Assembly (NCBI GenBank): GCA_037132275.1
Contig: JBAXPK010000007.1
Location: forward strand, 518-64,517
Length of the DNA: 64,000 nucleotides
Source of the DNA: a bacterium
GTDB lineage: Bacteria > Verrucomicrobiota > Kiritimatiellia > CAIKKV01 > CAITUY01
Reading direction: 5' to 3'
Part shown: one piece after another, positions 2,056 to 23,142 of the stretch
Layout of the letters: every line of letters starts with the position of its first letter
Numbering within the stretch: the first letter of the stretch is position 1
The notes under the pieces: generated by a model
Database searches by the model: none
The model's input: only the letters and a program-made list of their open reading frames with translations
Told to the model about the DNA's origin: nothing
Position numbers and translations under genes: made by a program

Positions 2056-3438
2056 TTGAAATTTATGAGCCAGACAAACAACAACGAAACAGAAGAGAAA
2101 CGGTTCTCCAAATGGCATACTGCCAGTGCGTGCCTCGGCTTGTGTTTCTTTTGCCTGGTATGGGGGGGGATATCCGTCCAGCATGGGTTTTTCCCTGGGT
2201 ATTTGCTTCGCAACGCCTATGAGGGGGCCAAAGCGGCAAGGGCTAGCTTGCACTATTGGCACATGCGATATAGCGACGACCTCTGGTCGACAAACCGGTT
2301 TTCGCGTAGTGGTGTCACGATTCATGACCCGGCCAGGACGTTTGAGGGCTACACCTTGTATACGTCCGGACACAGTCAGGCAGCGGTGCTGATGGATATG
2401 GGCGGGAAGGTTGTCCATGAATGGAAACTGCCCTATGACCAAATATGGGATTCGTCCGGCGAGGTGAAATATCCCCGCCCTCCCCACCAGGTCTTCTGGT
2501 TCAAGGCGAAGGTCTTTCCGAATGGCGATCTTATGGCCGTTGTGGAAGGAAATGGGGGCACACCCTGGGGCCAGGGAATCATCAAGATAGACCGCGATTC
2601 CCGCCTCATCTGGAAGTACCTGGGCTGTGCGCATCACGACTTCAGCATCGGCGACGACGGACGCGTCTACGGGTTGACGCATGCCATCCGTGAGGAACCC
2701 CTAACTAACCTGCCGCTGAGCTATCCCTGCCTGGAAGATTTTGTCGTGGTGCTGTCGCCGGACGGCAAAAAGGAGCAGCAGGTCTCGATGTTCGAAGCCC
2801 TCGCCAATTCGCGTTACAGGCGGGCTCTGGAAGCGGCGCCGAAAACCCCCTACGGGGAATATCTCCATTGCAACGCGGTTCGCGTGGTTGACAAACAGAT
2901 CGTGCGGAATTTCCCCTTTGCGCATGAGGGGCAGGTATTTGTTTCGATCCGTGAATTCAGCGCCGTGGTGCTTGTTGATCTCAGTAAGCGTTCGGTCGTG
3001 AACGCGCTGATTGGTTCATGGAGGTATCAGCATGATCCGGACTTTCTGGATAACGGCCACGTCATGCTCTTCGATAACTATGGCAACATGGAGGATGGGG
3101 GGATTTCGCGTGTCATCGAGTTTGATCCCCTGACCGGCGGCGTGGTGTGGTCTTACCATGGTACGGATGCCAACCCCCTGAGCAGCGAGAAGCGGTCGAA
3201 CGCCCAGCGGCTGCCCAATGGGAACACGCTCATCACGGAATCGGATTCAGGAAGACTCCTCGAAGTGACGACCCAAGGTGACGTGGTCTGGGAATTCATC
3301 AATCCCGTCAGGGGTGGAAAGAAAGGGGAGCTCATCCCGGTCATCAGCACCGGCGAGCGCATCGCGCCGGAAAGCCTCGATCCGTCGTTCCGCGACACTC
3401 TTGCTTCAAAACAAACTCAAACGAAAGGCTCACCGTGA
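2056..3438 (+). CDS. Aryl-sulfotransferase (ASST)-like beta-propeller protein with N-terminal membrane anchor
   Basis: N-terminal TM (ASACLGLCFFCLVWGGISV). Motifs recalled from ASST/Arylsulfotran_2 proteins: HHDFSIGDDGRVYGL, YLHCNAVRVVD, QHDPDFLDNGHVMLFDNYGN, RLPNGNTLITESDSGRLLEVTTQGDVVWEF. Start is TTG 2056 or ATG 2065. Confidence 0.55.
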   Translation: MKFMSQTNNNETEEKRFSKWHTASACLGLCFFCLVWGGISVQHGFFPGYLLRNAYEGAKAARASLHYWHMRYSDDLWSTNRFSRSGVTIHDPARTFEGYTLYTSGHSQAAVLMDMGGKVVHEWKLPYDQIWDSSGEVKYPRPPHQVFWFKAKVFPNGDLMAVVEGNGGTPWGQGIIKIDRDSRLIWKYLGCAHHDFSIGDDGRVYGLTHAIREEPLTNLPLSYPCLEDFVVVLSPDGKKEQQVSMFEALANSRYRRALEAAPKTPYGEYLHCNAVRVVDKQIVRNFPFAHEGQVFVSIREFSAVVLVDLSKRSVVNALIGSWRYQHDPDFLDNGHVMLFDNYGNMEDGGISRVIEFDPLTGGVVWSYHGTDANPLSSEKRSNAQRLPNGNTLITESDSGRLLEVTTQGDVVWEFINPVRGGKKGELIPVISTGERIAPESLDPSFRDTLASKQTQTKGSP

Positions 3439-4155: not shown

Positions 4156-5280
4156 ATGGACAAAACAACACAAGAGAGTTCGGACTTTCAGGTTGACTGG
4201 TTGACAAACCGATTGAGCCAATGGGTCTGGAAGTCGCCGGGGCGTGCTGTTCGGCTGGGGAACCATGAGAGCCGGTGGTTTGCCGATGAATTACAGTCCT
4301 GCCCGGTTCAGAAGCCGGTGTTCATTGCGGGGTTGGCAAGGTCGGGAACCACGATCCTGCTGGAGTTCATGGCGATGCTAGACGGGGTGGCCACCCATCG
4401 ATACCGTGATTTCCCGCTGGTGCATATGCCTATCTGGTGGAACGAGTTCCTGAACCTCACTCCCCGGAAACGCATGGAGCCCGTCGAAAGGAGCCATCGC
4501 GACGGCATTGTGATCACGCCCGAAAGCCCGGAGGCGATGGAAGAGCCCCTCTGGATGAGTTTCTTTCCGCTGGCCCACGACTCGGCGGTCAGCCAGGTGC
4601 TGAATGCGGCCACGGTGAACCCGGGATTTGAAGCGTTTTTCCAAGACCACTTGCGCAAGATCCTGTTCGTGCGCCAGGGTCGCCGCTATGTGTCGAAGGG
4701 CAATTACAACGTCACGCGGCTCGAGTATCTCCTGCGTCTGTTTCCGGACGCACGGTTTGTGGTGCCGGTGCGGGAACCTGCGGGGCACGTGGCTTCACTC
4801 ATCAAGCAGCACCGCATCTTCGGCGAAAATCTTCGAGGCAATCCGCGTGCGCTTGAGTATCTGCGCCGCGTTGGGCACTTCGAATTCGGGCCGGACAGGC
4901 GGGCGATCAATGTGGGGGACACGGTCCTGGCCCGGGAGATTGAAGCGTTGTGGGCCGCCGGCGAAGAGGTGCGTGGTTGGGCCCGATACTGGGCCTCCAT
5001 CCATGGTTTCCTTGCGGGGCGCATGGAATCGGATCCGCTCTTTCGGAAGGCTGTACGACTGGTTCGGTTTGAGGAACTGTGCGAGCGGCCGGCCGCTGAA
5101 CTCAGGAAGATCGCGGAGCATGGTGAGTTTACAGATGCCGCGCGAGGCGCGGACTCTTTCGCGGAACGAATTCGGTTCCCTCGGTACTACGCGCCTTCGT
5201 TCAGTGAAGCCGACGGGATGGCCATTAAGGACGAAACGGCGTCCGTGTTCATGCGACTCATGCGTCTCCAACAACAATGA
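4156..5280 (+). CDS. PAPS-dependent sulfotransferase family protein
   Basis: 5'-phosphosulfate-binding P-loop FIAGLARSGTTILLEFM. A downstream VPVREPAGHVASL segment resembles the 3'-phosphate-binding motif of sulfotransferase-domain proteins. Confidence 0.65.
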   Translation: MDKTTQESSDFQVDWLTNRLSQWVWKSPGRAVRLGNHESRWFADELQSCPVQKPVFIAGLARSGTTILLEFMAMLDGVATHRYRDFPLVHMPIWWNEFLNLTPRKRMEPVERSHRDGIVITPESPEAMEEPLWMSFFPLAHDSAVSQVLNAATVNPGFEAFFQDHLRKILFVRQGRRYVSKGNYNVTRLEYLLRLFPDARFVVPVREPAGHVASLIKQHRIFGENLRGNPRALEYLRRVGHFEFGPDRRAINVGDTVLAREIEALWAAGEEVRGWARYWASIHGFLAGRMESDPLFRKAVRLVRFEELCERPAAELRKIAEHGEFTDAARGADSFAERIRFPRYYAPSFSEADGMAIKDETASVFMRLMRLQQQ

Positions 5281-5293
5281 AAGGGCTCGTATT

Positions 5294-6244
5294 ATGAAGA
5301 ACAGGCAGTTTTATAATGGGATGTCGGTATTACTTGCCGTGGTTTCGCTTCTGGGCGCAGGCTGCGGTAAGCGGCAGACTGCGCCGGAGGCCCGGATCAC
5401 GGTTTCGGGTGCCTGGGCGCTTTACCCGATGATGGTGAAATGGGCGGAAGAATATAGGAAGTCACATCCCGGGATTCAGATCGATATTTCTGCAGGCGGA
5501 GCCGGAAAAGGGATGACGGATGCCTTATCAGGCGCCGCCGATATCGGCATGGTTTCACGGGATATCAATCCCTCCGAAGCGGGTAAGGGGGCATGGTGGG
5601 TGGCGGTGGTCAAGGATGCCGTGATTCCCGTCATGAATGCCTCAAACCCGAACGGCGGCATCCTCGCCAAACGGGGTCTCAAGAAAGAGGAATTTACCGC
5701 CATCTTTGTGAAGGGAAATGTTCAGGATTGGAGTTTTGCGGGCGGCACACCAACTCCGCTTCATGTTTATACTCGATCAGACGCCTGCGGCGCAGCGGAA
5801 ACCTGGGCCAAGTATCTTGGCGCCAAGCAGGAAGACTTGAAGGGAACCGCCGTTTACGGGGATCCCGGCGTGGCCGAAGCCGTGCGCAAAGACGTGTCAG
5901 GCATCGGGTTCAATAATCTGATTTTCGCCTATGACATCAAGAGCGGTCAACCCCTTCCGGGTATATGCGTCATCCCCATCGACAGCAATGGGAACGGCGC
6001 CGTGGATCCCGGGGAGGATTTCTATGGGACCCACAAGGCGGTCATGCAGGCAATTGCTACGGGGCGTTATCCCTCCCCGCCAGCCCGTGATCTGAATCTG
6101 GTGCATCATGGGCCCCCCCCGTCCGGACCTGTTGCCGATTTTATCAAGTGGGTGCTTGCGGAGGGGCAAGCGTTTGTATCCGAAGCCGGCTATATCGCCC
6201 TGCCCGCTGAAATCCTCAACAGCCAGAAGGCAAAGCTGAAATAG
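5294..6244 (+). CDS. pstS: Phosphate ABC transporter substrate-binding lipoprotein PstS
   Basis: Lipobox LLGAGC. PstS-type motifs ITVSGAWALYP, ISAGGAGKGMTDALSGAADIGMVSRDINPSE. ATG 5294 lies 13 nt after the sulfotransferase stop. The longer track ORF from 4628 overlaps the previous gene and is Arg/Ser/Cys-rich. Confidence 0.8.
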   Translation: MKNRQFYNGMSVLLAVVSLLGAGCGKRQTAPEARITVSGAWALYPMMVKWAEEYRKSHPGIQIDISAGGAGKGMTDALSGAADIGMVSRDINPSEAGKGAWWVAVVKDAVIPVMNASNPNGGILAKRGLKKEEFTAIFVKGNVQDWSFAGGTPTPLHVYTRSDACGAAETWAKYLGAKQEDLKGTAVYGDPGVAEAVRKDVSGIGFNNLIFAYDIKSGQPLPGICVIPIDSNGNGAVDPGEDFYGTHKAVMQAIATGRYPSPPARDLNLVHHGPPPSGPVADFIKWVLAEGQAFVSEAGYIALPAEILNSQKAKLK

Positions 6245-6247
6245 GCC

Positions 6248-7150
6248 ATGGATCGTGATTCCATACGACAGGGACTGGATTGCTGGGGCCGCCGAGGCAT
6301 GGTTGCGACGGTGGCGATGTGCATTTTACTCCTACTGCTTATGGCGATGGGCCTGCTGTGGAAATCCTGGCCCATTCTTAGCTCACATTCACTGGCAGGC
6401 CTGTTTCTTTCCAGCGTCTGGAAACCCCATGGAGGGCAGTTCGGATTTCTGGCCTTCATTCTGGGTTCCTTATGCATTACCGGAGTAGCGGTGCTGCTGG
6501 CCGCGCCGGTTTCGTTGTTAACGTCCATCTATCTGTCCGAATATGCCGGACGCCGGATCCGGGCGTTGATGTCGCCCCTGATCGATCTCCTGGCGGGCAT
6601 TCCCTCGGTGGTTTACGGGGTGTGGGGAGTGCTGGTGGTCGTTCCCCTGGTGAAAGATCATCTAGCGCCGGTATTCGGCCGATATTCATCCGGGTATTGC
6701 GTTCTTTCCGCCGGGGTGGTGCTGGCCATCATGATTTTGCCTGTCGTCATTCATGTGGGCCTGGATGTGTTGAAGTCCGTTCCCCAGGGGTTGCGCGAGG
6801 CCTCCCTGTCACTGGGCGCGAATCGGTGGGAAACGGTGAAGCATGTAGTATTGCGGCGTGCGGCGCCGGGCCTGTTGGCCGCCAATGTTTTAGGCGTGTC
6901 GCGGGCCTTTGGCGAGACGATGGCCGTTCTCATGGTGGCGGGGAACGTCGCCGTGACTCCGAAATCCGCATTCGATCCCGCCTACCCGCTACCCGCGCTC
7001 ATTGCCAACAACTACGGCGAGATGATGTCGATCCCGCAGTATGACTCCGCCCTGATGCTGGCGGCGCTCATGCTTTTCGTGGTGGTACTGGGTTTCAATT
7101 TATTGTCGCGCTGGGTTTTTGCCCGTATGGAGTTGCGCATTTCAGGATGA
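6248..7150 (+). CDS. pstC: Phosphate ABC transporter permease PstC
   Basis: Multi-TM permease with an EAA-like loop (GLREASLSLGANRWETVKHVVLRRAAPGL). Lies immediately after pstS. Confidence 0.8.
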   Translation: MDRDSIRQGLDCWGRRGMVATVAMCILLLLLMAMGLLWKSWPILSSHSLAGLFLSSVWKPHGGQFGFLAFILGSLCITGVAVLLAAPVSLLTSIYLSEYAGRRIRALMSPLIDLLAGIPSVVYGVWGVLVVVPLVKDHLAPVFGRYSSGYCVLSAGVVLAIMILPVVIHVGLDVLKSVPQGLREASLSLGANRWETVKHVVLRRAAPGLLAANVLGVSRAFGETMAVLMVAGNVAVTPKSAFDPAYPLPALIANNYGEMMSIPQYDSALMLAALMLFVVVLGFNLLSRWVFARMELRISG

Positions 7151-7154
7151 ACCC

Positions 7155-8003
7155 ATGAGAAAGCAGATTGAAGAAATTGCCGCCAAAATCCTGATGATCG
7201 GAGCCGCCGTGGTGGTGGCCGGGATGGTCGTTTTGATTCTCGGAACCGTGTTATGGCGCGGCCTCCCGGCGTTGAGTTGGGAAATGATCTCGCAGACTCC
7301 GTCCGGCGGTTACTATCTCGGAAAGGGCGGCGGCATTCTCAATGCCATCGTCGGGTCACTTTCGGTGGCCGGTGGCGCAACCCTGCTGTCGCTCGGCCTG
7401 GCTTTGCCAGTGGCGTTGAGCCTGAATGTCTATTTCAAGACCCATTCCCGACTGGCGGGTTGCGTCAGGGGCTCGTTGGATGTGCTGTGGGGTGTGCCCT
7501 CCATTGTCTATGGCGCCTTCGGGTTTGCGTTTATGCTTTGGCTCGGACTCCGCGCTTCCCTCCTGGGGGGGATTATCACCGTGGCTTTGATGATCCTCCC
7601 CATCATGATCCGGGCCATGGATGAAGTGATTCACATGGTTCCGCACGAGATGCTGGAAGCCTCCGATGCCCTGGGTGCCACCCGGTGGGAGGGCGCCTGG
7701 AAGGTAATCCTCCGGCAGGCGCTTCCCGGACTTGCCAGCGCGGCGCTGATCGCCTTCGGGCGGGGGATCGGGGATGCCGCCTCTGTTCTTTTCACGGCGG
7801 GATTTTCGGACCGGATTCCGATGTCACTTGCGGATCCTGCTGCGACCCTGCCGCTGGCCATATTCTTCCAGTTGGGTACCCCGTTCCCGGAGGTTCAGCA
7901 ACGGGGCTATGCTGCGGCGCTGATATTAACGGCCATCGTGCTGACGGCCAGCGCTCTGGCGCGTCTGGTCAGCCATCGGGCGGGACGGTTTGTAATTCGA
8001 TGA
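7155..8003 (+). CDS. pstA: Phosphate ABC transporter permease PstA
   Basis: Multi-TM permease with EASDALGATRWEGAWKVILRQALPGL. ATG 7155 lies 4 nt after the pstC stop. Confidence 0.8.
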   Translation: MRKQIEEIAAKILMIGAAVVVAGMVVLILGTVLWRGLPALSWEMISQTPSGGYYLGKGGGILNAIVGSLSVAGGATLLSLGLALPVALSLNVYFKTHSRLAGCVRGSLDVLWGVPSIVYGAFGFAFMLWLGLRASLLGGIITVALMILPIMIRAMDEVIHMVPHEMLEASDALGATRWEGAWKVILRQALPGLASAALIAFGRGIGDAASVLFTAGFSDRIPMSLADPAATLPLAIFFQLGTPFPEVQQRGYAAALILTAIVLTASALARLVSHRAGRFVIR

Positions 8004-8013
8004 AGGACATACC

Positions 8014-8775
8014 ATGACAGCCAATACCCCTATTGAAGTGAAAGACCTGAATGTGCATTACGGCACGATCCATGCTTTGAAAAATATCCACGTTAGTATC
8101 CCCAATTGCCAGATCACGGCAGTCATCGGCCCCTCGGGGTGCGGTAAGTCTACCTTGTTGCGTTCGTTCAACCGCATGCTCGACACCATGGATGATGTGC
8201 GGGTCACAGGCGGGGTGCTGGTCGACGGTGAGAATATTTTTGCGGCCAATGCGGATGTGCCGCGTCTACGCCGCAAGATGGGACTGCTTTCTCAGCGGCC
8301 GTTTCTCCTGCCTATGTCGATCTATGACAATGTGGCCTACGGGCCGCGCATCCATGGGATCAGCCGCCATTCCGACCTGGATTGCACCGTGGAAAAATAC
8401 CTCCGGATGGCCAACATGTGGGATGAGGTCAAGGATCGTCTTCGCGAGCCCGCTGCAAAGCTGTCGATCGGTCAACAGCAACGGCTCTGCCTGGCGCGGG
8501 GCCTCGCTGTGGAACCCGAGATTATCCTGGCGGACGAGCCCACCTCGGCGCTGGACCCGATTTCAAGCCGTCACATTGAACAACAATTCCGAGAGTTACG
8601 GGCTGACTACACGCTGGTGATGGTGACCCATATTCTTCGGCAGGCCCGTCGCCTGGCCGACTATGTGCTTTTCATGTATCTGGGTGAACTCATCGAGCAC
8701 GGGCCGGCGGCCGAACTGTTTGAGAATCCCCGCGAGGAATTGACGAAGGATTATATCAAGGGAACGATCAGTTAG
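8014..8775 (+). CDS. pstB: Phosphate ABC transporter ATP-binding protein PstB
   Basis: Walker A GPSGCGKST, signature LSIGQQQRLCLARGL, Walker B IILADEPTSALD. PstB-typical N-terminus (VKDLNVHYG) and C-terminus (TKDYIKG). Confidence 0.85.
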   Translation: MTANTPIEVKDLNVHYGTIHALKNIHVSIPNCQITAVIGPSGCGKSTLLRSFNRMLDTMDDVRVTGGVLVDGENIFAANADVPRLRRKMGLLSQRPFLLPMSIYDNVAYGPRIHGISRHSDLDCTVEKYLRMANMWDEVKDRLREPAAKLSIGQQQRLCLARGLAVEPEIILADEPTSALDPISSRHIEQQFRELRADYTLVMVTHILRQARRLADYVLFMYLGELIEHGPAAELFENPREELTKDYIKGTIS

Positions 8776-8786
8776 GAGGCCAGGCC

Positions 8787-9308
8787 ATGGTGAGTAGTAA
8801 GATTCAACCTGCAGTCGTGTGGTTCACCGGATTATCAGGGTCCGGCAAGAGTACCCTTGCTGAGAAGGTGGAGCACGCCCTGAAGATGCGTGGCGTGGAC
8901 ACCGAGATTCTGGATGGCGACCGGGTTCGCGCGGTCTTTCCGAGCATCGGGTTCTCCCTTGAGGAGCGCAACGCGCATATCCGCCGCATGGGCTTCATGG
9001 CGGGTCTCCTTGAGAAACACGGTGTGGTGGTGCTGGCGAGTTTCGTGTCGCCTTATGCAGAGGCCCGCCAGGCGGCGCGGTGGCAATGCCGCAATTTTAT
9101 TGAGGTCTATCTTTCCACCCCCCTCGCCGAATGCGAGCGGCGCGATGTGAAAGGTCTCTACGGCAAGGCGCGCCGGGGCGAGATCTCCAACTTCACCGGA
9201 GTCAGTGATCCGTATGAAGTTCCGGAGAATCCGGATCTGGTTATCGACACCACCGCCATGAGTGTGGAGGAATCTGTTGCCCTGGTTCTGGGGAGATTGC
9301 AGTCATGA
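8787..9308 (+). CDS. cysC: Adenylylsulfate (APS) kinase CysC
   Basis: [56 protein letters not shown]. All canonical APS kinase motifs are retained. Confidence 0.85.
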
Positions 9309-10210
9309 CAATCCATTCCCTGACCCATTTGAAGCAACTGGAAGCCGAGAGCATTCATATCATGCGCGAGGTGGCCGCAGAATTCGAGCGGCCGGTCATG
9401 CTTTACTCGGTCGGGAAAGACTCATCGGTCATGGTGCGGCTGGCCCAGAAGGCCTTTTACCCCGGACGGATTCCCTTTCCACTGATGCATGTGGATACAG
9501 GTTTCAAATTCGGGGAGATGATTGAGTTCCGTGACCGGTTTGTGAAGGAGATCAAGGCGGATCTTATTGTGCATCAGCATGAAAAATCAGCCGACCTGTC
9601 GGTGAATCCCTTTGCCCTCGGAACCCAGAAGTGCTGTGCGATACTTAAGACGCAGGCTCTGGTGGAAGCCATACGCAAACATAAGTTTGACGCCGCTTTC
9701 GGGGGCGCCCGCCGCGAGGAGGAGAAATCGCGGGCCAAGGAGCGGGTGTTCTCCTTTCGGGACGAGCTCGGGCAGTGGGATCCCAAAAACCAGCGTCCGG
9801 AACTGTGGAGCCTCTATAATACCCGGGTCAACACAGGCGAATCCATCCGAGTATTCCCCATCTCCAACTGGACCGAGTTGGATGTCTGGCAATATATCTA
9901 CATGGAAAAGATTCCGGTGGTGCCCATGTACTTTGCGCAGGAGCGCGACATGATTGTGAGGGATGAGCAGTTGATTCCGTTCCAGGAAACCACGCCGCTC
10001 AAACCGGGCGAACACCCCTGCAAAGTGCTGAGTCGATTCCGCACCCTGGGCTGTTATCCCTGTACCGGGGCCATCCGGTCATCGGCGTCAACGGTGGCGG
10101 AAATCATCGAGGAAATGATGGTCGTACGCATCTCCGAACGTTCGACCCGCGTGATTGATCATGACGCCGAGGGCTCGATGGAAATGAAGAAACGGGAAGG
10201 GTATTTCTAG
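9305..10210 (+). CDS. cysD: Sulfate adenylyltransferase subunit 2 CysD
   Basis: [35 protein letters not shown] (PP-loop), [11 protein letters not shown], and the C-terminal KKREGYF typical of CysD. ATGA overlap with cysC. Confidence 0.9.
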
Positions 10211-10211
10211 A

Positions 10212-12143
10212 ATGAATGCGATTGAGGCATTTCTGGCGGAGAATGAGAAGAAGGATCTGCTTCGGTTTTCGACGGCGGGCAGCATTGACGACGGCAAGTC
10301 AACCCTGATCGGCCGTTTACTGCACGACTCAAAGAATGTCTACGAGGATACGCTGGCGTCGATCAAAAAGGCGTCTCGTGAAAAAATGTCGGAGGAACAG
10401 ATCGACCTTGCCTTGCTCACTGACGGTCTTAAGGCAGAACGCGAGCAGGGGATCACCATTGACGTCGCCTACCGCTATTTTTCGACACCGCGCCGGAAAT
10501 TCATCATCGCCGACACGCCCGGACACGAGCAATACACCCGGAATATGGCGACCGGCGCCTCGACCGCCAATCTTTCGGTTGTGCTGGTGGATGCGCGTCA
10601 TGGCATCCTTCCCCAGACGCGGCGCCATGCGTTTATCGCCTCCCTGCTGGGGGTGCCGCACATGATTGTGGCCGTGAACAAAATGGATGCCGTGGACTAT
10701 CGGGAAGACGTCTTTCAGGCGATTCGCGACGAGTTCGCTGAGTTTGCCTCGAAGCTGGGCATCAAGGATCTGCGTTTCATTCCGCTGAGTGCCCTCAAGG
10801 GCGATAACGTCGTCCATCGCAGTGGAAACATGACCTGGTACCGGGGCGAAAGCCTGATGGAAATCCTGGAGAACGTCTACATCGGCAGCGACCATAATCT
10901 CGTGGATCTGCGGTTCCCCATCCAATATGTGGTGCGCCCGGATATGGGCTTCCGCGGCTATGCCGGAGTTGTCACCTCCGGTGTCATCCGTCGGGGGGAT
11001 GAGGTGTTGGCGCTCCCTTCGATGAAAGTCAGCCGGGTCAAATCGATTGTCACCTTTGATGGCGACGTGGAAGAGGCCTGTTCGCCCATGTCGGTAACGG
11101 TCACCCTGGAAGACGAGCGTGATATCAGCCGCGGGGAAATGCTGGTCCGTCCGCATAACCTTCCCAAAATGGACCGGCGTTTTGAAGGCATGGTGGTGTG
11201 GATGGGGGATGCCCCAATGGATCTGAATGCCAGCTATTTCATCAAGCACACCACCCGCCTGACCCGGTGCCGGGTGGACGAAATCCGTTACAAGGTGAAT
11301 GTGAACACCCTGGCCAGAGAGGCCATGACGGGACTCGCCTTGAATGACATTGGCCGGGTTGTCTTCACCGCCAATCAACCCCTGTTCAGTGATTCCTACG
11401 AGAAGAACCGGGGAACCGGCTCATTTATCCTGATTGACCCCGTGACCAACGCCACTGCGGCAGCCGGGATGATCATTGATCGCGAACCAGCGGAACAGCT
11501 TGTTTCCCGCATCACCCCCGGGGTAGGGGCGCACACGATGAGCCGGCATGGCCGCCAGATCGAGGCCGGGGAGCGGGTGGCGCGTTATGGGCAGAAGCCG
11601 GCGACCCTGTGGCTGACCGGTCTGGTGGGATCGGGAAAATCAAGTCTGGCTGGCGCGCTAGAGCGGAAGCTTTTCGACTTGGGCGCCGTCAGCGTTGTCC
11701 TCGATGGTTCGAATGTGCGGTCGGGCCTCAACCGTGAACTGGATTTCACGTCCGAGGGGATGGCCGAACATCTCCGCCGCGTCGCTGAGATGGCTCGGCT
11801 CCTGAACGATGCCGGGTTGGTGGTTATATGCGCCTTTGTTTCCCCTCATGAAAAGGTGCGCCGGCAGGTGGCTGAAATTATTGGAATCGACCGGTTTCTG
11901 GAAGTTCACGTGGATGCGCCCCTTGAGTGGTGCCAGGCTCACGACCACACTGGGTTCTATCAGCGGGCCGAGGTAGGCGAGGTGCGCAACGTGGCGGGCA
12001 TCAGTTTTCCTTATGAAGCGCCGACCACGCCCTCGCTCAGGGTGTCGACGCCGGATATGACGCCTGAAGGTGCTGTATCAATCGTCATGAACCTGCTGCG
12101 TAAACAAGGGATATTCCCGGTCGGTGCTCTCTCAAATGAGTGA
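10212..12143 (+). CDS. cysN: Sulfate adenylyltransferase subunit 1 (CysN GTPase) fused to an APS-kinase-like C-terminal domain
   Basis: GTPase motifs [21 protein letters not shown]. The C-terminal domain starts about 11601 ([15 protein letters not shown]) but has LDGSNVR instead of LDGDNVR, plus other substitutions. Confidence 0.85.
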
Positions 12144-12636: not shown

Positions 12637-12679
12637 CTAACGTGAGCGTTGTTGTTTCCTAACATAGGGTGTCTATCGT
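12637..12679 (+). promoter_or_regulatory. Promoter-like element: CTAAC-N17-CTAAC-N10-TATCGT
   Basis: CATCTAACG (12634-12642), N10, TGTTTCCTAACA (12653-12664), then TATCGT at 12674-12679. It lies 28 nt upstream of ATG 12707, which has an AAGGAGG RBS. Confidence 0.45.
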
Positions 12680-12895: not shown

Positions 12896-12924
12896 CTGTT
12901 CTCGTCCACCCTGCTGACGAACAT

Positions 12925-12967
12925 CTAACGAGCGGGTCGCTGTTTCCTAACAGGGTTGGCTTATGAT
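12925..12967 (+). promoter_or_regulatory. Promoter-like element, twin of 12637..12679
   Basis: CATCTAACG (12922-12930), N10, TGTTTCCTAACA (12941-12952), then TATGAT at 12962-12967. Identical spacing to the first copy. Confidence 0.45.
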
Positions 12968-14378: not shown

Positions 14379-14421
14379 CTAATGGTTGTCAAACATTGCT
14401 CTAACGATTGAATGTTATAAT
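14379..14421 (+). promoter_or_regulatory. Promoter-like element: CTAAT-N17-CTAAC-N10-TATAAT
   Basis: CTAAT at 14379, CTAAC at 14401, perfect TATAAT at 14416-14421. The ATG at 14432 is 11 nt after the hexamer and has no SD, so the mRNA is probably leaderless or nearly so. Confidence 0.5.
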
Positions 14422-14431
14422 TCACATCCAT

Positions 14432-16810
14432 ATGGAATCAGCTACGGGTACAATGACAGGCGGCGATGATCTGGCAAGGCTCCGCAGCCTGTTGCAGATG
14501 GGTGAAGGCGGTGACCGCCTGGCTGAGGCGCTGCCATTCGGCATTGGCGATGCGACGGCAGGCGCCGAGAACGAACTGCAGACGGTGGTAACTGGTCCTC
14601 GCGAACAGGTAGATCTGGCCCGTGCGGTGGAGGAATCGAGCTACTTCAAGAACCTCATGCGGCGCGCCGCCGTGGGGGAAGCCTCCAAGAGCCTGGTTCG
14701 GGACATTAAGGATTTCCTGGCGGACAACCGGGAGTCGGCTTGGGAGAACAGTTGGGTGTACTTCCCGGCAGACCTCATGACGCCTTATGCGCAGTCCGTG
14801 TTCGAGGGGGATCTGTATGCCGACAAACAGGCGCCGGGCGTCCGCCGATCAGATGCAGGCCGTTTTGAGATTCAACGCAACGGGATCCGTTGCGTTCGCA
14901 TTCCCGTAAGTTATCTCCTGAAGCTGGCACTGGCCGATGCCATCAGCTTCGGTCGGGAACCGCACCCGGTGGTTCGCAGCACAGGCGAGAGGCTGATGCG
15001 TCATTTCCTCAACGACAACACCTCTCCCGAGACGCTGTCGTTCCACACAGTGGGTTCATCGTCCGAGCCGGGATTGGGCCGTGCGCTGGCAGAGGAGACG
15101 CTGAGGCGTTTTCTGCTGGTGCAGTTTCTGACCATGTACGCGAACGAGAAGTTCGAGCTGCGCGCAAGGGGGCAGCAGACGCTGGTCTGCCTCGCGCCGC
15201 ACACCCCCCGGCGCCAGAAGCAGTTGAATGAAATGGTGGCGGACTCGTTCTATCGCGACCTCTTCATGAGTCCATGCCTGTCAGGGTGGGATCGCGGGGA
15301 GGACAAGTACCATTATATGATCCTGTGCCACGAGGTGCTTTCGCGCAGCCGGCTCAACACCATGGCAAAGCTGCGCGAGTGTGGCATTCTTTCACGGGAT
15401 TTGGTGACCCTGCCGACGGTGTCCAACACGAGCCTGGCCAACAACGGCACGCATATCACCCTGGGCAGCCGCCGCCTTACCGCCTTGATGGCCCCCGGCG
15501 GGGGCAATGGGTTCACGGCGCAGGACGAAAAACGGACGGGCGACCTCGTTGTAAAGATTGTTGAACATTTTCTCCCCCTCTTTGTCGGGACTTACACAGC
15601 GGCGCCGCACCGGTTGGATTTTCGCGACTTTCATCCGGAGTCAGTGTTGGGATTTCTGCCGCACGAACTCGACTTCACCCATTTGCGCATGTTGTGGCGG
15701 CGCTGGCAGGGCAAGGCCGATCTCAAATGCCTGGGGGTCACGCTGACGCCCTTCGGGCCGCGTGCGCTGGATCGTTTCCTGGCCACGGTGCTCGGGTTAC
15801 GCGGCGACTGGGTGCCGGATCAGCGCCTGATTGACTACCTTGTCTCGCCCCTGAGCACGGACCACAGTCCGGCCCTTGACGGGACGATAGGCAATGATGA
15901 GCGGCTCAAGCGGGATCTGGCCCAGATGGGTGTGTTTGACCCACGGATGTCTTTCTACTCCCTGTATCGCCAGCGGATTTTCTCCAAGATGGGATTCTGC
16001 GGGTTTGAGGGGCGCCACTACAGCCAGTTCGCGAGCATCACCCGGGACATGGCTGCGGCCACCGATATGCAGCGGCTGGTTACCGCGTTGGCCTACCAGT
16101 ATGTGTTGACTGGCGCCGTGACCCATGTAGACATCCCGGACACGCCTGAAGTCGAGAGCGAACGGCGCCAGGTCTTTTTCGGGACGGCCATCGGTATCCC
16201 GACGTTTTTTGTCAGAACTCAGACCTCGAACCGGTTTCTCCAGCATATCCTGGGACGAGCGGCACGAACCCGTGATAGTCACCGGTATTCGGGGCGCACC
16301 CGCGTTTATAACGACGAATACCGCCGGGCACTAGTGGCAACCCTGGAACATGACGGTGCGGGGCTGATCGAATCCCTCGGGCTCGGTGAGACCGTGAGCG
16401 ACCTGAAGCGGAGAATCGAGCCGGCCGGAAAAGGATCGGCGCTGGACGCCCTCCTCACGGGAATTCTGGACGAGGCGGGAACCTCATCACCGCTGAAAGC
16501 GTCCGCAGGGACATTCAACGAGGCGGCGGAACGCTACTACCGGGACACCCTGCTGAAGAATTTTGTGGCTGAAGCGCTTGATTTGTTCGCCCGCGACCTG
16601 AAGGAACTCGCAAGCCGCTCGTCTGGCGGTGGGGAGGAGGCGAAGGCCCTATTGTCGGCGCTAAACGGGGAGGATCCGACTTCCTTCCTGGAGGCGGTAC
16701 GGGGCACGGTGCTGGAAGGGAAAGTCTCCCAGTCCGTTCTGGTCAAGCTCATCAGCCTCGTACTGCTGGTCATCCGCCACCACTGTGAAGAGAACGGAGG
16801 CAAACCATGA
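14432..16810 (+). CDS. Large conserved-looking hypothetical protein (793 aa), family not recognised
   Basis: Long uninterrupted ORF with even, cytoplasmic-type composition and no TM or signal peptide. Its stop overlaps the next start (ATGA at 16807-16810). The track start TTG 14408 lies inside the predicted promoter. Confidence 0.6.
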   Translation: MESATGTMTGGDDLARLRSLLQMGEGGDRLAEALPFGIGDATAGAENELQTVVTGPREQVDLARAVEESSYFKNLMRRAAVGEASKSLVRDIKDFLADNRESAWENSWVYFPADLMTPYAQSVFEGDLYADKQAPGVRRSDAGRFEIQRNGIRCVRIPVSYLLKLALADAISFGREPHPVVRSTGERLMRHFLNDNTSPETLSFHTVGSSSEPGLGRALAEETLRRFLLVQFLTMYANEKFELRARGQQTLVCLAPHTPRRQKQLNEMVADSFYRDLFMSPCLSGWDRGEDKYHYMILCHEVLSRSRLNTMAKLRECGILSRDLVTLPTVSNTSLANNGTHITLGSRRLTALMAPGGGNGFTAQDEKRTGDLVVKIVEHFLPLFVGTYTAAPHRLDFRDFHPESVLGFLPHELDFTHLRMLWRRWQGKADLKCLGVTLTPFGPRALDRFLATVLGLRGDWVPDQRLIDYLVSPLSTDHSPALDGTIGNDERLKRDLAQMGVFDPRMSFYSLYRQRIFSKMGFCGFEGRHYSQFASITRDMAAATDMQRLVTALAYQYVLTGAVTHVDIPDTPEVESERRQVFFGTAIGIPTFFVRTQTSNRFLQHILGRAARTRDSHRYSGRTRVYNDEYRRALVATLEHDGAGLIESLGLGETVSDLKRRIEPAGKGSALDALLTGILDEAGTSSPLKASAGTFNEAAERYYRDTLLKNFVAEALDLFARDLKELASRSSGGGEEAKALLSALNGEDPTSFLEAVRGTVLEGKVSQSVLVKLISLVLLVIRHHCEENGGKP

Positions 16811-17823
16811 TGGCACACCAGTATGTGGAACGGCGGAGTGCGTGCGCCGTCGGCGAGACGTTTTTTGGCGACCCGGTTGTCTCTTTTTTGTATTCACGGA
16901 TCCGTGAGGAGTCAGGGTGGTTGTACCGGGCGCTGACCTCATCCCGGCTGACCAACCTGCTGGGGATATTGCAGTTCGATGTCCGTCCCCGCGATCCCGC
17001 CCGTATGCGTTGGCGGCTGGCATCGGCGTGTGGAGTGGACTTTTCGGAATGTGCCGACCCGTTGGAGACTCTCGATACGGCGCGCAAGGTCTTTGAGCGC
17101 AAGATTCGCTATTGGGAGTGCAGGCCCATGGATCCCGATCCCGGGGCGATCGTATCCCCTTCGGATGCCCGTCTCTTGGTGGGTTCGTTCCAAAAGGTTT
17201 CCGGTTTGTTGCTCAAAGAAAAATTCTTCCGCTTCGAGGAATTGTTGGGCGATGATAAACTCGGCTGGCAGGAATCGTTCCGCGGCGGGGATTATGCCGT
17301 GTTACGACTGACGCCCGACAAGTACCATCGCAACCATGCGCCCGTGACCGGGGTGGTGAGGGATATCTACGAAGTGGACGGGGTCTTCCAGTCCTGCCAC
17401 CCCGCTGTCGTCATTGCCCAGGCCACGCCCTATTCCAAGAACCGGCGGACGGTTACGATCATTGACACCGATGTGCCGGGCGGAACACAAGCCGGGCTGG
17501 TGGCGATGGTCGAGGTGGTGGCGCTGATGATTGGCGAGATTGTGCAGTATTACTGTCAGGAGCGATACGATGCCCCCTTGGCAGTGTATAAAGGATTGCA
17601 CCTCTTGCGAGGATGCCCAAAGAGTCTGTTCCGCCCCGGCAGTTCCACGGTTGTGCTGGTGTTTCAACCGGGGCGCATCCGGTTTAGCGAGGATCTTGTG
17701 GCAAACCTCCGGCGTACCGATGTGAGGAGTTGTTACAGCGATGGAGAAGGAGGCGCCGTGGTGGAAACCGATGTGGCAGTCAGGTCAACCATTGCCCGCG
17801 TCGTTCCGGGAGGCCAGGCATGA
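16807..17823 (+). CDS. psd: Phosphatidylserine decarboxylase-family protein
   Basis: LRLTPDKYHRNHAPVTGVV and the self-cleavage-type motif FRPGSSTVVLVF (compare the canonical LGST). Confidence 0.7.
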   Translation: MMAHQYVERRSACAVGETFFGDPVVSFLYSRIREESGWLYRALTSSRLTNLLGILQFDVRPRDPARMRWRLASACGVDFSECADPLETLDTARKVFERKIRYWECRPMDPDPGAIVSPSDARLLVGSFQKVSGLLLKEKFFRFEELLGDDKLGWQESFRGGDYAVLRLTPDKYHRNHAPVTGVVRDIYEVDGVFQSCHPAVVIAQATPYSKNRRTVTIIDTDVPGGTQAGLVAMVEVVALMIGEIVQYYCQERYDAPLAVYKGLHLLRGCPKSLFRPGSSTVVLVFQPGRIRFSEDLVANLRRTDVRSCYSDGEGGAVVETDVAVRSTIARVVPGGQA

Positions 17824-18923
17824 GCGCCGCCATCGTCGTGGGAATCATGACGCTCTGCCTCGGGGTATTGTTTTTCTGGGCGTTTCGCGTCCTGCCCGGC
17901 GAGCCGTGGCAAATTCTGGCGGTATGGCCGCGCCAGAAGGAGCCTGATGGCACATGGCGCGGTACGAACCTGACTTACTATGGTCTATTCAATGGTCTAG
18001 GATTGGCGGTGGCGGTGGCGGTGACGGTGTTTCTGCTGGGAACCATGCGAATGCCGCTGCCCTATGTGGCGTGGTGTGTCTTTGTTCTCCTGGCGGTCAC
18101 GGTTCCTGCTTCCAAAATTGTCAATCGCATGGTGGAGGGACATTGGCACGGGTTCACCATTGGAGGGGCCTCATTCGTCGGGATGGTGGCGGGCCCCTGG
18201 TTGGTCTGGGGTATTTCCCGCCTGACTCTGTCAGCGGAGGAAGGGGCGATGGCGACGGTGTCTGTGATGGGTGCCATAGCGTGTGCCTATGCGTTGGGTG
18301 AAGGCATCGGGCGGTTAGCCTGCATCAGTTTCGGCTGTTGTTACGGGCGACCGCTGGCGGACTGTCCAGCCTGGCTTTCAAAATTATTCACTCACGGGGC
18401 TTTTGTCTTTGAGGGACGCTTAAAAAAATCCTCTTACGAACACAGGTATGAAGGCAAACGCCTGATTCCTGTGCAGGCCCTGACCGCCATCATCTCCAGC
18501 ATGGCCGGGCTCGTCGGCATGGCGGTATTCCTGGGCGGGCATCCGGTTCTAGCCTATGTGATGCCGGTTGTCGCTACGCAGGTGTGGAGGTTTGTGTCGG
18601 AATTCCTGCGGGCGGATTACCGGGGGGCGGGGCGGATTACTGCCTACCAGGGCATGGCCCTTGCGGGAGCGGCCTATACGGTGGCGCTTGGCCTTCTGTG
18701 GTCCGGCACGCTGGCGCTTACTCCCGATGTGGCTCGCGGCCTGGCGTTGCTATGGACTCCTGGCGCGATTCTATTAATTGAAGCCGTCGCCCTCTTTGTT
18801 GCCATTCGCATGGGCCTCAGTACAGTCACAACGGCCAGAATTCATTTCGGCCTCAGGCAGGATGGCGTGCCACCCGTGTCCCCTGCCTTGCGAACATCTG
18901 ACGGCTCGCTAACTCAGGACTAA
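17820..18923 (+). CDS. Lgt-like (prolipoprotein diacylglyceryl transferase family) polytopic membrane protein
   Basis: About 8 TM segments. GEGIGRLACISFGCCYGRPL resembles the Lgt GRxGxFxNGCCYG motif. ATGA overlap with the psd-like gene. Confidence 0.5.
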   Translation: MSAAIVVGIMTLCLGVLFFWAFRVLPGEPWQILAVWPRQKEPDGTWRGTNLTYYGLFNGLGLAVAVAVTVFLLGTMRMPLPYVAWCVFVLLAVTVPASKIVNRMVEGHWHGFTIGGASFVGMVAGPWLVWGISRLTLSAEEGAMATVSVMGAIACAYALGEGIGRLACISFGCCYGRPLADCPAWLSKLFTHGAFVFEGRLKKSSYEHRYEGKRLIPVQALTAIISSMAGLVGMAVFLGGHPVLAYVMPVVATQVWRFVSEFLRADYRGAGRITAYQGMALAGAAYTVALGLLWSGTLALTPDVARGLALLWTPGAILLIEAVALFVAIRMGLSTVTTARIHFGLRQDGVPPVSPALRTSDGSLTQD

Positions 18924-18940
18924 TCTTTCTGCGGCATAGT
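18898..18940 (+). promoter_or_regulatory. Pho-box-like promoter element containing a 26-bp palindromic unit
   Basis: CTGAC at 18898, CTAAC at 18909, GGACTAATCTT at 18917-18927. Palindrome GGACTA-N14-TAGTCC at 18917-18942. CATAGT at 18935-18940. Confidence 0.5.
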
Positions 18941-19703: not shown

Positions 19704-19747
19704 GACAGAACGACATGGCGGGCGAGTATGAGCGCCCTTACAAAGTT

Positions 19748-19790
19748 CTGACCGCAGACTAATTCGAGACTAATCATTCTGCGGCATAGT
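19748..19790 (+). promoter_or_regulatory. Pho-box-like promoter element upstream of the phoB-like gene
   Basis: CTGAC at 19748. Tandem 11-mers AGACTAATTCG (19756-19766) and AGACTAATCAT (19767-19777). Palindrome AGACTA-N14-TAGTCT at 19767-19792. CATAGT at 19785-19790. Confidence 0.55.
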
Positions 19791-19843: not shown

Positions 19844-20542
19844 ATGGCTGTTGCTCAGAAACATATACTGATTGTTGAAGACGAGGATGATATCCTTGAG
19901 TTGGAGCGCTACAATCTGACGCGGGAGGGCTTCAGCGTGGCCGCAGTTTCGCGCGGCGAGGATACCCTCAAGGCGGTGACCCAGAAGAGGCCGGATCTCA
20001 TTCTCCTGGATCTCATGCTGCCGGGTATGAACGGGCTTGAAGTGTGCCAGAAACTCAAAGCAGATCCCTCAACCGCCGACATCCCGATCATCATGGTCAC
20101 AGCCAAAGGCGAGGAATCGGACATCATTGTGGGGCTGGAACTCGGGGCGGACGATTATGTGAACAAGCCCTTCAGCATCAAAGTGCTCATTTCCCGCATC
20201 CGTGTTGCGCTGCGCCGTCAGCCGATCAAAGCTTATGACCAGAAGCATGGCCTGCGGGTCGGTGACGTGGAGATCAATCCCAGCCGTTTTCAGGTGAAGA
20301 TCAAGGGAAAACCCATTGTGGGGCTCACGGTGACAGAGTTCCACCTGCTTCACTTTCTTGCCAGCCGTTCAGGCCGTGTCATGAACCGGCAACAGATCCT
20401 GGATGCTGTGCGCGGTGAGGATATTGCCGTGACTGAGCGGGCGGTGGATGTCCAGATGGTCGGCTTACGCAAGAAGCTCGGCTCCGCCGCAGATTACATT
20501 GAGGCCGTGCGTGGAGTGGGATACCGCTTCAGGGACGGCTGA
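19844..20542 (+). CDS. phoB: OmpR/PhoB-family response regulator (PhoB-like)
   Basis: REC domain (ILIVEDEDD...DLILLDLMLPGMNG...VTAKGEESDIIVGLELGADDYVNKPFS). Winged-helix domain (TEFHLLHFL, RAVDVQMVGLRKKL, VRGVGYRF). Close motif-by-motif to E. coli PhoB. No adjacent kinase. Confidence 0.75.
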   Translation: MAVAQKHILIVEDEDDILELERYNLTREGFSVAAVSRGEDTLKAVTQKRPDLILLDLMLPGMNGLEVCQKLKADPSTADIPIIMVTAKGEESDIIVGLELGADDYVNKPFSIKVLISRIRVALRRQPIKAYDQKHGLRVGDVEINPSRFQVKIKGKPIVGLTVTEFHLLHFLASRSGRVMNRQQILDAVRGEDIAVTERAVDVQMVGLRKKLGSAADYIEAVRGVGYRFRDG

Positions 20543-23048: not shown

Positions 23049-23110
23049 GTCTACAAAAGGGTGGGAGGGCGTCGTGATATAAAGAATGCAAACCCAAAAC
23101 ACACACGGGT

Positions 23111-23142
23111 TTAATATCAGGCTAACAATCGGAACCTATAAT
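23111..23142 (+). promoter_or_regulatory. Promoter-like element: TTAAT-N6-CTAAC-N10-TATAAT
   Basis: TTAAT at 23111, AGGCTAACAAT at 23119-23129, perfect TATAAT at 23137-23142. Same register as the 1995, 18917 and 19767 copies. Lies 29 nt upstream of ATG 23171. Confidence 0.45.

Follow-up and report, generated by a model that had tools for sequence, protein, structure and literature searches.

Several described bacterial pathways replace membrane phospholipids under phosphate limitation, among them PlcP-Agt, BtaAB, which yields diacylglyceryltrimethylhomoserine (DGTS), and OlsBA/OlsF, which yields ornithine lipid. Anoxic waters and sediments are rich in phosphorus-free polar lipids, for many of which the genes are not known. 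To our knowledge, no renovation pathway contains a ligase of the glutamate-cysteine ligase (GCL) fold, a pyruvoyl decarboxylase or a transferase of the Lgt fold. Here we analysed an operon of three genes, G1-G2-G3, whose predicted products are of these three kinds. It occupies positions 14432-18923 of a 64,000-nucleotide stretch of contig JBAXPK010000007.1 (positions 518-64,517, forward strand; assembly GCA_037132275.1) from a bacterium of the Verrucomicrobiota, class Kiritimatiellia; the whole stretch is referred to as the window, and coordinates are those of the window. Our leading reading, a tentative one given somewhat less than an even chance, is that the operon serves to make or remodel the polar head group of a membrane lipid based on diacylglycerol, in all likelihood within the phosphate-starvation (Pho) response. 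The phospholipid replacement proposed for the trio resembles the known pathways by functional analogy only, not by homology, and its enzymes come from entirely different families. In many loci the trio adjoins genes encoding a phospholipase C and a glycosyltransferase of the GT4 type, and it lies behind Pho-type boxes.

The superfamily of each enzyme is known, as is phosphate-sparing lipid renovation; what has not been described before is the G1 family, an Lgt-fold enzyme of this non-canonical kind and the three genes in combination. G1 has twice the length of YbdK/GCS2 and GshA (about 790-830 residues), carries an extra helical C-terminal domain of about 260 residues and a conserved segment (residues 394-530), has no sequence-profile match, and is encoded together with genes resembling phosphatidylserine decarboxylase (PSD) and Lgt. 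Unlike those of PafA/Dop, the trio loci show neither a Pup-like small gene nor a proteasome or Mpa context, and G1 has no match to Pfam Pup_ligase; we know of no pupylation in the phyla that host the trio. G2 shares with E. coli Psd (NF001941 type) the Pfam family, the Gly-Ser self-cleavage site, the Asp-His-Ser triad and the catalytic His, but its score is roughly a third of that required for the equivalog, and it forms a clade of its own downstream of G1 and does not lie beside pssA. G3 keeps equivalents of R143, G154, R239, E243, R246 and Y26-G27 of E. coli Lgt (5azb), whereas N146 and E151 are replaced by Cys and H103 by Val, and about two extra helices are present. Full-text literature searches returned no description of the G1-G2-G3 gene set. 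A study of D. alaskensis under phosphate limitation mentions agt and olsF and nothing like the trio genes (PMC5193443).

Organization and conservation of the operon

G1 (14432-16810, + strand) encodes a soluble protein of about 790 residues, which represents a new sequence family with a modelled carboxylate-amine ligase fold of the GCL/YbdK/PafA-Dop type. G2 (16807-17823, + strand) encodes a putative PSD-family pyruvoyl-dependent decarboxylase proenzyme of 338 residues, and G3 (17820-18923, + strand) a 367-residue protein, predicted to be a divergent, Lgt-fold integral membrane enzyme. The three open reading frames (ORFs) are present on the + strand exactly where an earlier note on this DNA had placed them, as are the ATGA sequences (16807-16810 and 17820-17823) in which, according to that note, they overlap. 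A GGAGG-type Shine-Dalgarno sequence precedes each overlap, and the three genes form one translationally coupled operon. The start codon of G1 is uncertain. A start at ATG 14432 gives a protein of 792 residues, the alternatives being TTG 14408 and ATG 14453, and an identical database protein (P0001) of 785 residues corresponds to the start at 14453.

In a survey of one genome per species, at least 549 species genomes were found to encode G1. They belong mostly to anaerobic bacteria, in the Victivallales, Desulfobacterota, Brocadia and Acidobacteriota. Gene order was followed in 82 fetched loci, with counts limited to those with enough DNA. G2 lies directly 3' of G1 in 77 of 78 loci and G3 directly 3' of G2 in 64 of 70, and in most lineages the genes overlap or are separated by short gaps. 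The synteny check that had been proposed for the trio hence finds G1, G2 and G3 together in nearly every G1-bearing genome. Among the exceptions, Trichlorobacter-type loci carry a GT4 glycosyltransferase gene (about 815 codons) between G2 and G3, sometimes together with a gene for a 720-residue protein of no assigned function, and Citrifermentans bremense has two histidine kinase genes between G1 and G2. As the flanks beyond the trio vary by lineage, the trio is a conserved module. On a 2.7-kb Verrucomicrobiota contig (L074:1421-1878), the match to G2 ends at residue 72 and continues as residues 269-350 of G3, owing either to an internal deletion or to an artefact of the assembly.

G1 is an orphan family with a modelled ligase fold

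More than 2900 homologues of G1 were found, every one labelled 'hypothetical'. Identity between the proteins of Victivallales-like bacteria and those of Geobacter, Desulfosarcina, Syntrophobacter, Brocadia and Acidobacteriota is 52-58%, and an alignment of 24 sequences has a mean column identity of 63% with about 190 invariant positions. G1 has no match in Pfam or NCBIfam. Searching the 24 members against Pfam at E <= 10 gave nothing relevant, with PF04107 (GCS2), Pup_ligase, GshA and Gln-synt_C all unmatched, and the G1 profile had no relevant match among the PDB sequences. Against 1.84 billion cluster representatives the profile gave 878 matches, and the matches listed comprise only the G1 family or its fragments.

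The structure model of G1 shows the antiparallel beta-sheet cradle fold that is common to GCL, YbdK, PafA and glutamine synthetase. Structural alignments to known ligases have 9-13% identity, and YbdK and the GCLs, which are small-molecule enzymes, fit the fold as well as PafA. The model further contains the C-terminal helical domain, and about 400 residues of G1 have no counterpart in known enzymes of the ligase fold. Structurally supported in this way, G1 is predicted to have the fold and the activity of an ATP-dependent carboxylate-amine ligase and would be a member of the superfamily by structure, outside any defined sequence family. A ligase fold is compatible with head-group chemistry. 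The earlier note had asked whether the protein might belong to a characterised family of unrelated function; the structure-model check finds a sequence-isolated protein with a carboxylate-amine ligase fold instead. The same note had seen no motif in G1 that it could assign. The ExE and GxH strands of the glutamate-cysteine ligase fold can in fact be recognised, though only by way of the structure model.

For the comparison of motifs, YbdK of E. coli, whose sequence was checked against 1r8g, served as the reference. The candidate hallmark motifs of G1, read directly from the sequence, are collinear with those of YbdK. By eye, the metal-binding ExE strand of YbdK, TLGIELEMQVV, has its counterpart in TAGAENELQTVV, and GQHVHVGC in GTHITLGS; EHFLPLFVGTYTAAPHR corresponds to SRFVPHFIALSAASPYM, and FEGRHY is a candidate E-x-R strand. 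Aligned to YbdK with hhalign, the G1 alignment gave just the 17-residue motif with AAP(Y/H) (EHFLPLFVGTYTAAPHR/SRFVPHFIALSAASPYM), at a probability of 0.35%. Residues E46, E48, H341, E526 and R528 are invariant in the 24 sequences and located on predicted strands, the correspondence being one of motifs and not of residues superposed. The most sequence-invariant stretch of the protein comprises residues 394-530 (window 15610-16020), with the motifs HPE..LPHELDFTHLRM.WRRW, GLRGD.VPD.RLIDYLV and GFEGRHYSQF.

G2 is a PSD-like decarboxylase

G2 matches the Pfam family PS_Dcarbxylase (PF02666) with an E-value of 2e-35 and 122.7 bits (cut-off 22), and its alignment to E. coli PSD (7cnw/6l06) spans the catalytic region. 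Residues D120, H174 and H177 correspond to D90, H144 and H147 of the E. coli enzyme, and self-cleavage is predicted between G278 and S279 in the motif PGSS. The two motifs that had been quoted as PSD hallmarks, LTPDKYHRNH and PGSS, are indeed present and, like D120, H174 and H177, invariant in 72 orthologues. Judged by these residues, G2 is a PSD-family pyruvoyl decarboxylase whose catalytic apparatus is intact. It falls below the cut-off of every PSD equivalog in NCBIfam, scoring 120.3 bits for the best, NF001941, which requires 371, and 77 bits for TIGR00163, which requires 111.75. The match to NF001941 covers nearly the whole protein including the N-terminal region (residues 5-302), and nearly all of the model as well.

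G3 is a remote relative of Lgt

With 27.7 bits, G3 scores barely over the gathering score (24.9) of the Pfam family LGT (PF01790). Its score against the Lgt equivalog is 23 bits at a cut-off of 334, which speaks against a housekeeping Lgt. Searches of the PDB sequences by phmmer and by profile recovered no Lgt structure. The AlphaFold2 model of G3 has a mean predicted local distance difference test (pLDDT) score of 90.5 and about nine long helices, which corrects the eight transmembrane helices assigned previously. Used as a Foldseek query, it gave E. coli Lgt (5azb) as the sole match, with an E-value of 4e-3, a probability of 1.00, a TM-score of 0.40/0.50 and 16% identity. This model makes G3 a distant member of the membrane proteins with an Lgt fold.

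The Lgt-like motif that had been pointed out in G3, GRLACISFGCCYG, is present and invariant across the orthologues; the invariant motifs include GEGxGRLACISFGCCYG and TQxWRxxSExxRADYRG. In the residue register of a low-probability hhalign alignment to the verified E. coli Lgt sequence, R165 is paired with R143 and G176 with G154 of Lgt, while N146, E151 and H103 of Lgt are replaced by C168, C173 and V120. Both cysteines are invariant, and an invariant C-x4-CC cluster lies in the region of N146/E151. Manual alignment of WRFVSEFLRAD with FRIIVEFFRQPD places R257, E261 and R264, all invariant, at the positions of R239, E243 and R246, and manual alignment of the invariant motifs indicates that equivalents of the Y26-G27 motif are kept as well. 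By these alignments G3 retains the residues with which Lgt holds phosphatidylglycerol, and the catalytic neighbourhood is altered and rich in cysteine. Records of G3 homologues (P0121, P0122, P0200 and others) have automatically been named 'prolipoprotein diacylglyceryl transferase'. For the G3 clade this label is probably a systematic mis-annotation, because N146, E151 and H103 are replaced and the score is far under the equivalog cut-off. The isolation of the G1 family, the synteny and the distance of G2 and G3 from the equivalog cut-offs support the description of the trio in the earlier note as an undescribed three-enzyme unit.

Pho-type boxes and neighbours of the trio

Upstream of G1, an operator-like sequence, CTAAT-N6-CAAAC-N6-CTAAC (14379-14405, + strand), consists of three half-sites spaced by 11 bp, one helical turn, and is a candidate binding site for a regulator of the PhoB/OmpR family. 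An extended -10-like element, TGtTATAAT (14413-14421, + strand), can be read off the sequence downstream of it. The strong promoter of its own that had been attributed to the operon is thus borne out as regards the extended -10 element, but a correctly spaced -35 element is absent. A consensus promoter scan made no call at this element because it lacks a -35 element at 16-18 nucleotides; the three half-sites occupy the expected -35 location.

To compare loci, we searched for three BTHAC half-sites with an 11-bp period, matching at 14 of 15 positions or better, on the sense strand and within 250 nucleotides upstream of a gene. Such sites precede G1 in 31 of 79 loci, against 0.76 expected at the background frequency of those loci. 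By gene class, they were found upstream of 42% of G1 genes, two of six pstS genes, two of four alkaline phosphatase genes and five of 21 genes for the GT4 protein. For G2 and G3 the figure is 0-1%, and for other genes 4%. The site equivalent to that of the window matches at 14 of 15 positions in two relatives (L004 and L006), and a strict search for the triple half-site without mismatch gave sites in two of 79 loci. As the BTHAC pattern was post hoc, the enrichment was retested with the PhoP box of B. subtilis, whose consensus is TTHACA-N5-TTHACA. Matches at 11 of 12 positions or better lie upstream of G1 in 19 of 76 loci and upstream of other genes in seven of 463 cases (Fisher p = 2.4e-12).

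The earlier note had recognised no functional unit between the trio and its neighbours. Across genomes, however, the trio associates with genes of phosphate starvation and lipid remodelling, as became apparent when the flanking ORFs of the fetched loci were clustered and representatives scanned for families. Neighbours related to phosphate starvation are PstS (seven loci), polyphosphate kinase (five), PIN-PhoH (eight) and alkaline phosphatase (four), and also PstB, PstC/A and PhoU. Response regulators with PhoB as their best match lie near the trio in ten loci, and histidine kinases in 17. Lipid enzymes are represented by a Zn-dependent phospholipase C (12 loci), the GT4 protein of about 815 residues (23 loci) and LPG_synthase_TM (three loci). 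The Pho-type gene kinds recur beside the trio in various orders and phyla. Taken with the boxes, these sequence data suggest that the trio probably belongs to the Pho regulon.

Several neighbours are characteristic of particular lineages. In Geobacteraceae (L015, L018, L021, L029, L036, L042, L045, L053, L069 and others), G3 is followed by a gene for a DUF2062 membrane protein and then by that for the Zn-dependent phospholipase C (PF00882); a DUF2062 gene is also found 3' of G3 in Desulfosarcina-type loci. The GT4 protein (L062:9308-11767; also L015, L036, L045, L055 and L075) occurs in Geobacteraceae and Desulfobacterales loci with about 40% identity between the two groups. It has a C-terminal GT4 domain and an N-terminal part of about 420 residues with a sub-threshold match to a PHP phosphoesterase, and is often paired with the 720-residue protein, which lacks a family assignment. 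By analogy to PlcP-Agt, it may be a fused phospholipase and glycolipid synthase. In Desulfobacterales loci (L023, L031, L037 and L047) a radical SAM protein of 430-450 residues is encoded between the GT4 gene and G1, and Pho-type boxes precede the radical SAM gene in two of five loci. In three Geobacteraceae loci (L019, L029 and L053), which are few and closely related, a gene resembling gamma-glutamyl cyclotransferase (AIG2/GGACT) lies divergently just upstream of G1, a neighbour that would be worth noting if G1 makes gamma-glutamyl amides. A small Pup-like ORF (30-119 residues) or a substrate gene conserved with the trio was not found beyond close relatives.

Phosphate, sulfation and repeat elements elsewhere in the window

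A pstS-pstC-pstA-pstB phosphate transporter (5378-8775, + strand) is encoded 5.6 kb upstream of G1, outside the operon. In NCBIfam, PstC scores over the cut-off with 274 bits, while PstA (184 bits), PstB (331 bits) and the PstS-family protein (91 bits) are best matches under theirs; the Pfam assignments are PBP_like_2, BPD_transp_1 and ABC_tran. Directly 3' of the transporter genes and on the same strand follow cysC (8787-9308), cysD (9305-10210) and a cysN-cysC fusion (10212-12143), so that a second, stand-alone adenosine 5'-phosphosulfate (APS) kinase is present alongside the fused one. Two genes of the sulfotransferase type (2056-3438 and 4156-5280) lie upstream of pstSCAB. The arrangement of the genes for phosphate uptake and for sulfation dependent on 3'-phosphoadenosine 5'-phosphosulfate (PAPS) is one-operon-like, and sulfated molecules could stand in for phosphorylated ones under phosphate limitation.

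Also outside the operon, a response regulator of the OmpR family with PhoB as its best match (19844-20542, + strand) has a half-site array of its own upstream (19737-19763). Arrays of the CTAAC type with an 11-bp period were found in intergenic regions on the + strand of the window at 1976-2002, 12637-12663, 12914-12951, 14379-14405, 18887-18924, 19737-19763 and 23100-23126, and CTAAC-N17-CTAAC occurs four times against 0.91 expected, in all cases on the + strand and upstream of genes. The genes behind the arrays encode an arylsulfotransferase-like protein (2056), a CBM48 protein (12956), G1, a secreted protein of 250 residues (18951), the PhoB-like regulator (19844) and a protein of 409 residues (23171). 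From their sequence and placement, the arrays look like a local regulon of the PhoB-like regulator.

Discussion

If the trio acts on the head group of a lipid, its reactions could be envisaged as follows. G3 would use phosphatidylglycerol as a diacylglyceryl donor and transfer the diacylglyceryl group to a non-protein nucleophile, such as the thiol of Cys, the hydroxyl of Ser or the product of G1. This step would free glycerol phosphate, which could be recycled for phosphorus. G2 would remove the carboxyl group of an alpha-amino-acid head group and leave a primary amine, in the way that PSD converts phosphatidylserine to phosphatidylethanolamine, and G1 would form an ATP-driven amide, probably of the gamma-glutamyl type, either on the amine produced by G2 or while the acceptor is being built. 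The net result would be a phosphorus-poor or phosphorus-free amino or amide lipid in place of a phospholipid; we infer both the product and the order of the reactions, and step order and acceptor are guesses. The more far-reaching claim, that the trio is a complete new pathway for a class of phosphorus-free diacylglyceryl amino or amide lipids made under phosphate starvation in anaerobes (Geobacter, sulfate reducers, syntrophs, anammox bacteria and Victivallales), is possible but in our view doubtful.

Several points weigh against a role in head-group synthesis within the Pho response. That the substrate of G1 is a lipid is something we purely infer, and the highly conserved residues 394-530 are the part of G1 that AlphaFold modelled worst (pLDDT 30-50 with the 24-sequence alignment). 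The PSD family includes non-lipid decarboxylases such as the fungal PsiD. The active site of Lgt faces the periplasm and an ATP-dependent ligase is cytoplasmic, so that the proposed steps would need a flip or another topology. With regard to regulation, the site of the window itself (14379-14405) matches the three BTHAC half-sites at just 13 of 15 positions, the pattern was set after some of these sequences had been viewed, and the sampled loci are phylogenetically related, many of them from Geobacteraceae. The E. coli-type Pho box (CTGTCAT) is not enriched upstream of G1 in the sampled loci, and the motif scan of the window gave no half-site array directly upstream of its pstS. Direct repeats with an 11-bp period are typical of any regulator of the OmpR family and not of PhoB alone, and the regulator in the window scores 237.6 bits against the PhoB model TIGR02154, under the cut-off of 296.2.

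The last of these points bear on the alternative that survives best, a modification of the lipid head group that has nothing to do with phosphate, such as an adaptation of envelope charge or to stress under another OmpR-family regulator, with the Pho neighbours being coincidental or specific to a lineage. The generic nature of the half-site arrays, the regulator below the PhoB cut-off and the fact that the CTAAC arrays of the window precede several unrelated genes and not pstS are consistent with it. We nevertheless consider this reasonable alternative unlikely, as several independent kinds of Pho genes recur beside the trio across orders and phyla, the same motif is found upstream of pstS and alkaline phosphatase in other loci, and the PhoP box, a pattern defined a priori, is enriched upstream of G1.

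The product might also be a soluble metabolite, that is, a small amine or amide such as an osmolyte, a thiol or a signalling molecule. G1 would then ligate two small molecules, G2 would decarboxylate the product, as in the synthesis of coenzyme A, and G3 would anchor, export or attach it. The GCL and YbdK relatives of G1 do act on small substrates, enzymes of the PSD family can take non-lipid substrates, as PsiD does, and the gamma-glutamyl-cyclotransferase-like gene adjoins G1 in the three Geobacteraceae loci. Against this, G2 matches the model of the membrane PSD, NF001941, over nearly its full length, the phosphatidylglycerol-binding arginines of Lgt are conserved in G3, and lipid enzymes (phospholipase C, GT4 and LPG_synthase_TM) recur nearby; we regard such a product as a reasonable alternative, though an unlikely one.

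A lipidation of proteins or peptides appears very unlikely. G1 could act like PafA or in the manner of an Atg8 conjugation and join the carboxylate of a protein to a phosphatidylethanolamine-like amine supplied by G2, or G3 could diacylglycerylate a cysteine of a dedicated protein. The fold of G1 would permit the first variant, but it fits the small-molecule enzymes YbdK and GCL equally well; residues on which Lgt depends for its reaction with proteins are missing from G3, and no small ORF or substrate gene is conserved beyond close relatives. Hardly credible, finally, and rejected here is a housekeeping role in which G2 is an ordinary PSD, G3 an ordinary prolipoprotein diacylglyceryl transferase and G1 an unrelated passenger: Pfam assigns both families and public records give G3 that name, but the equivalog scores (120 bits against 371 for G2, 23 against 334 for G3), the replacement of the Lgt residues N146, E151 and H103, the restriction of the trio to about 0.3% of species genomes (at least 549) with G2 after G1 in 77 of 78 loci, and the Pho-type boxes and neighbours speak against it, and by their sequences G2 and G3 are not of the housekeeping type.

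Should the trio indeed make or remodel a lipid head group under phosphate starvation, it would be a missing piece of the response of strict anaerobes to phosphorus scarcity. A first function would be assigned to a ligase family that is large, has no relatives by sequence and occurs in more than 500 species. The Lgt fold, known to date from lipoprotein maturation alone, would gain a second, non-housekeeping use, with the first non-protein substrate of an Lgt-fold enzyme. Thousands of entries named 'prolipoprotein diacylglyceryl transferase' or 'phosphatidylserine decarboxylase' would then probably be mis-named.

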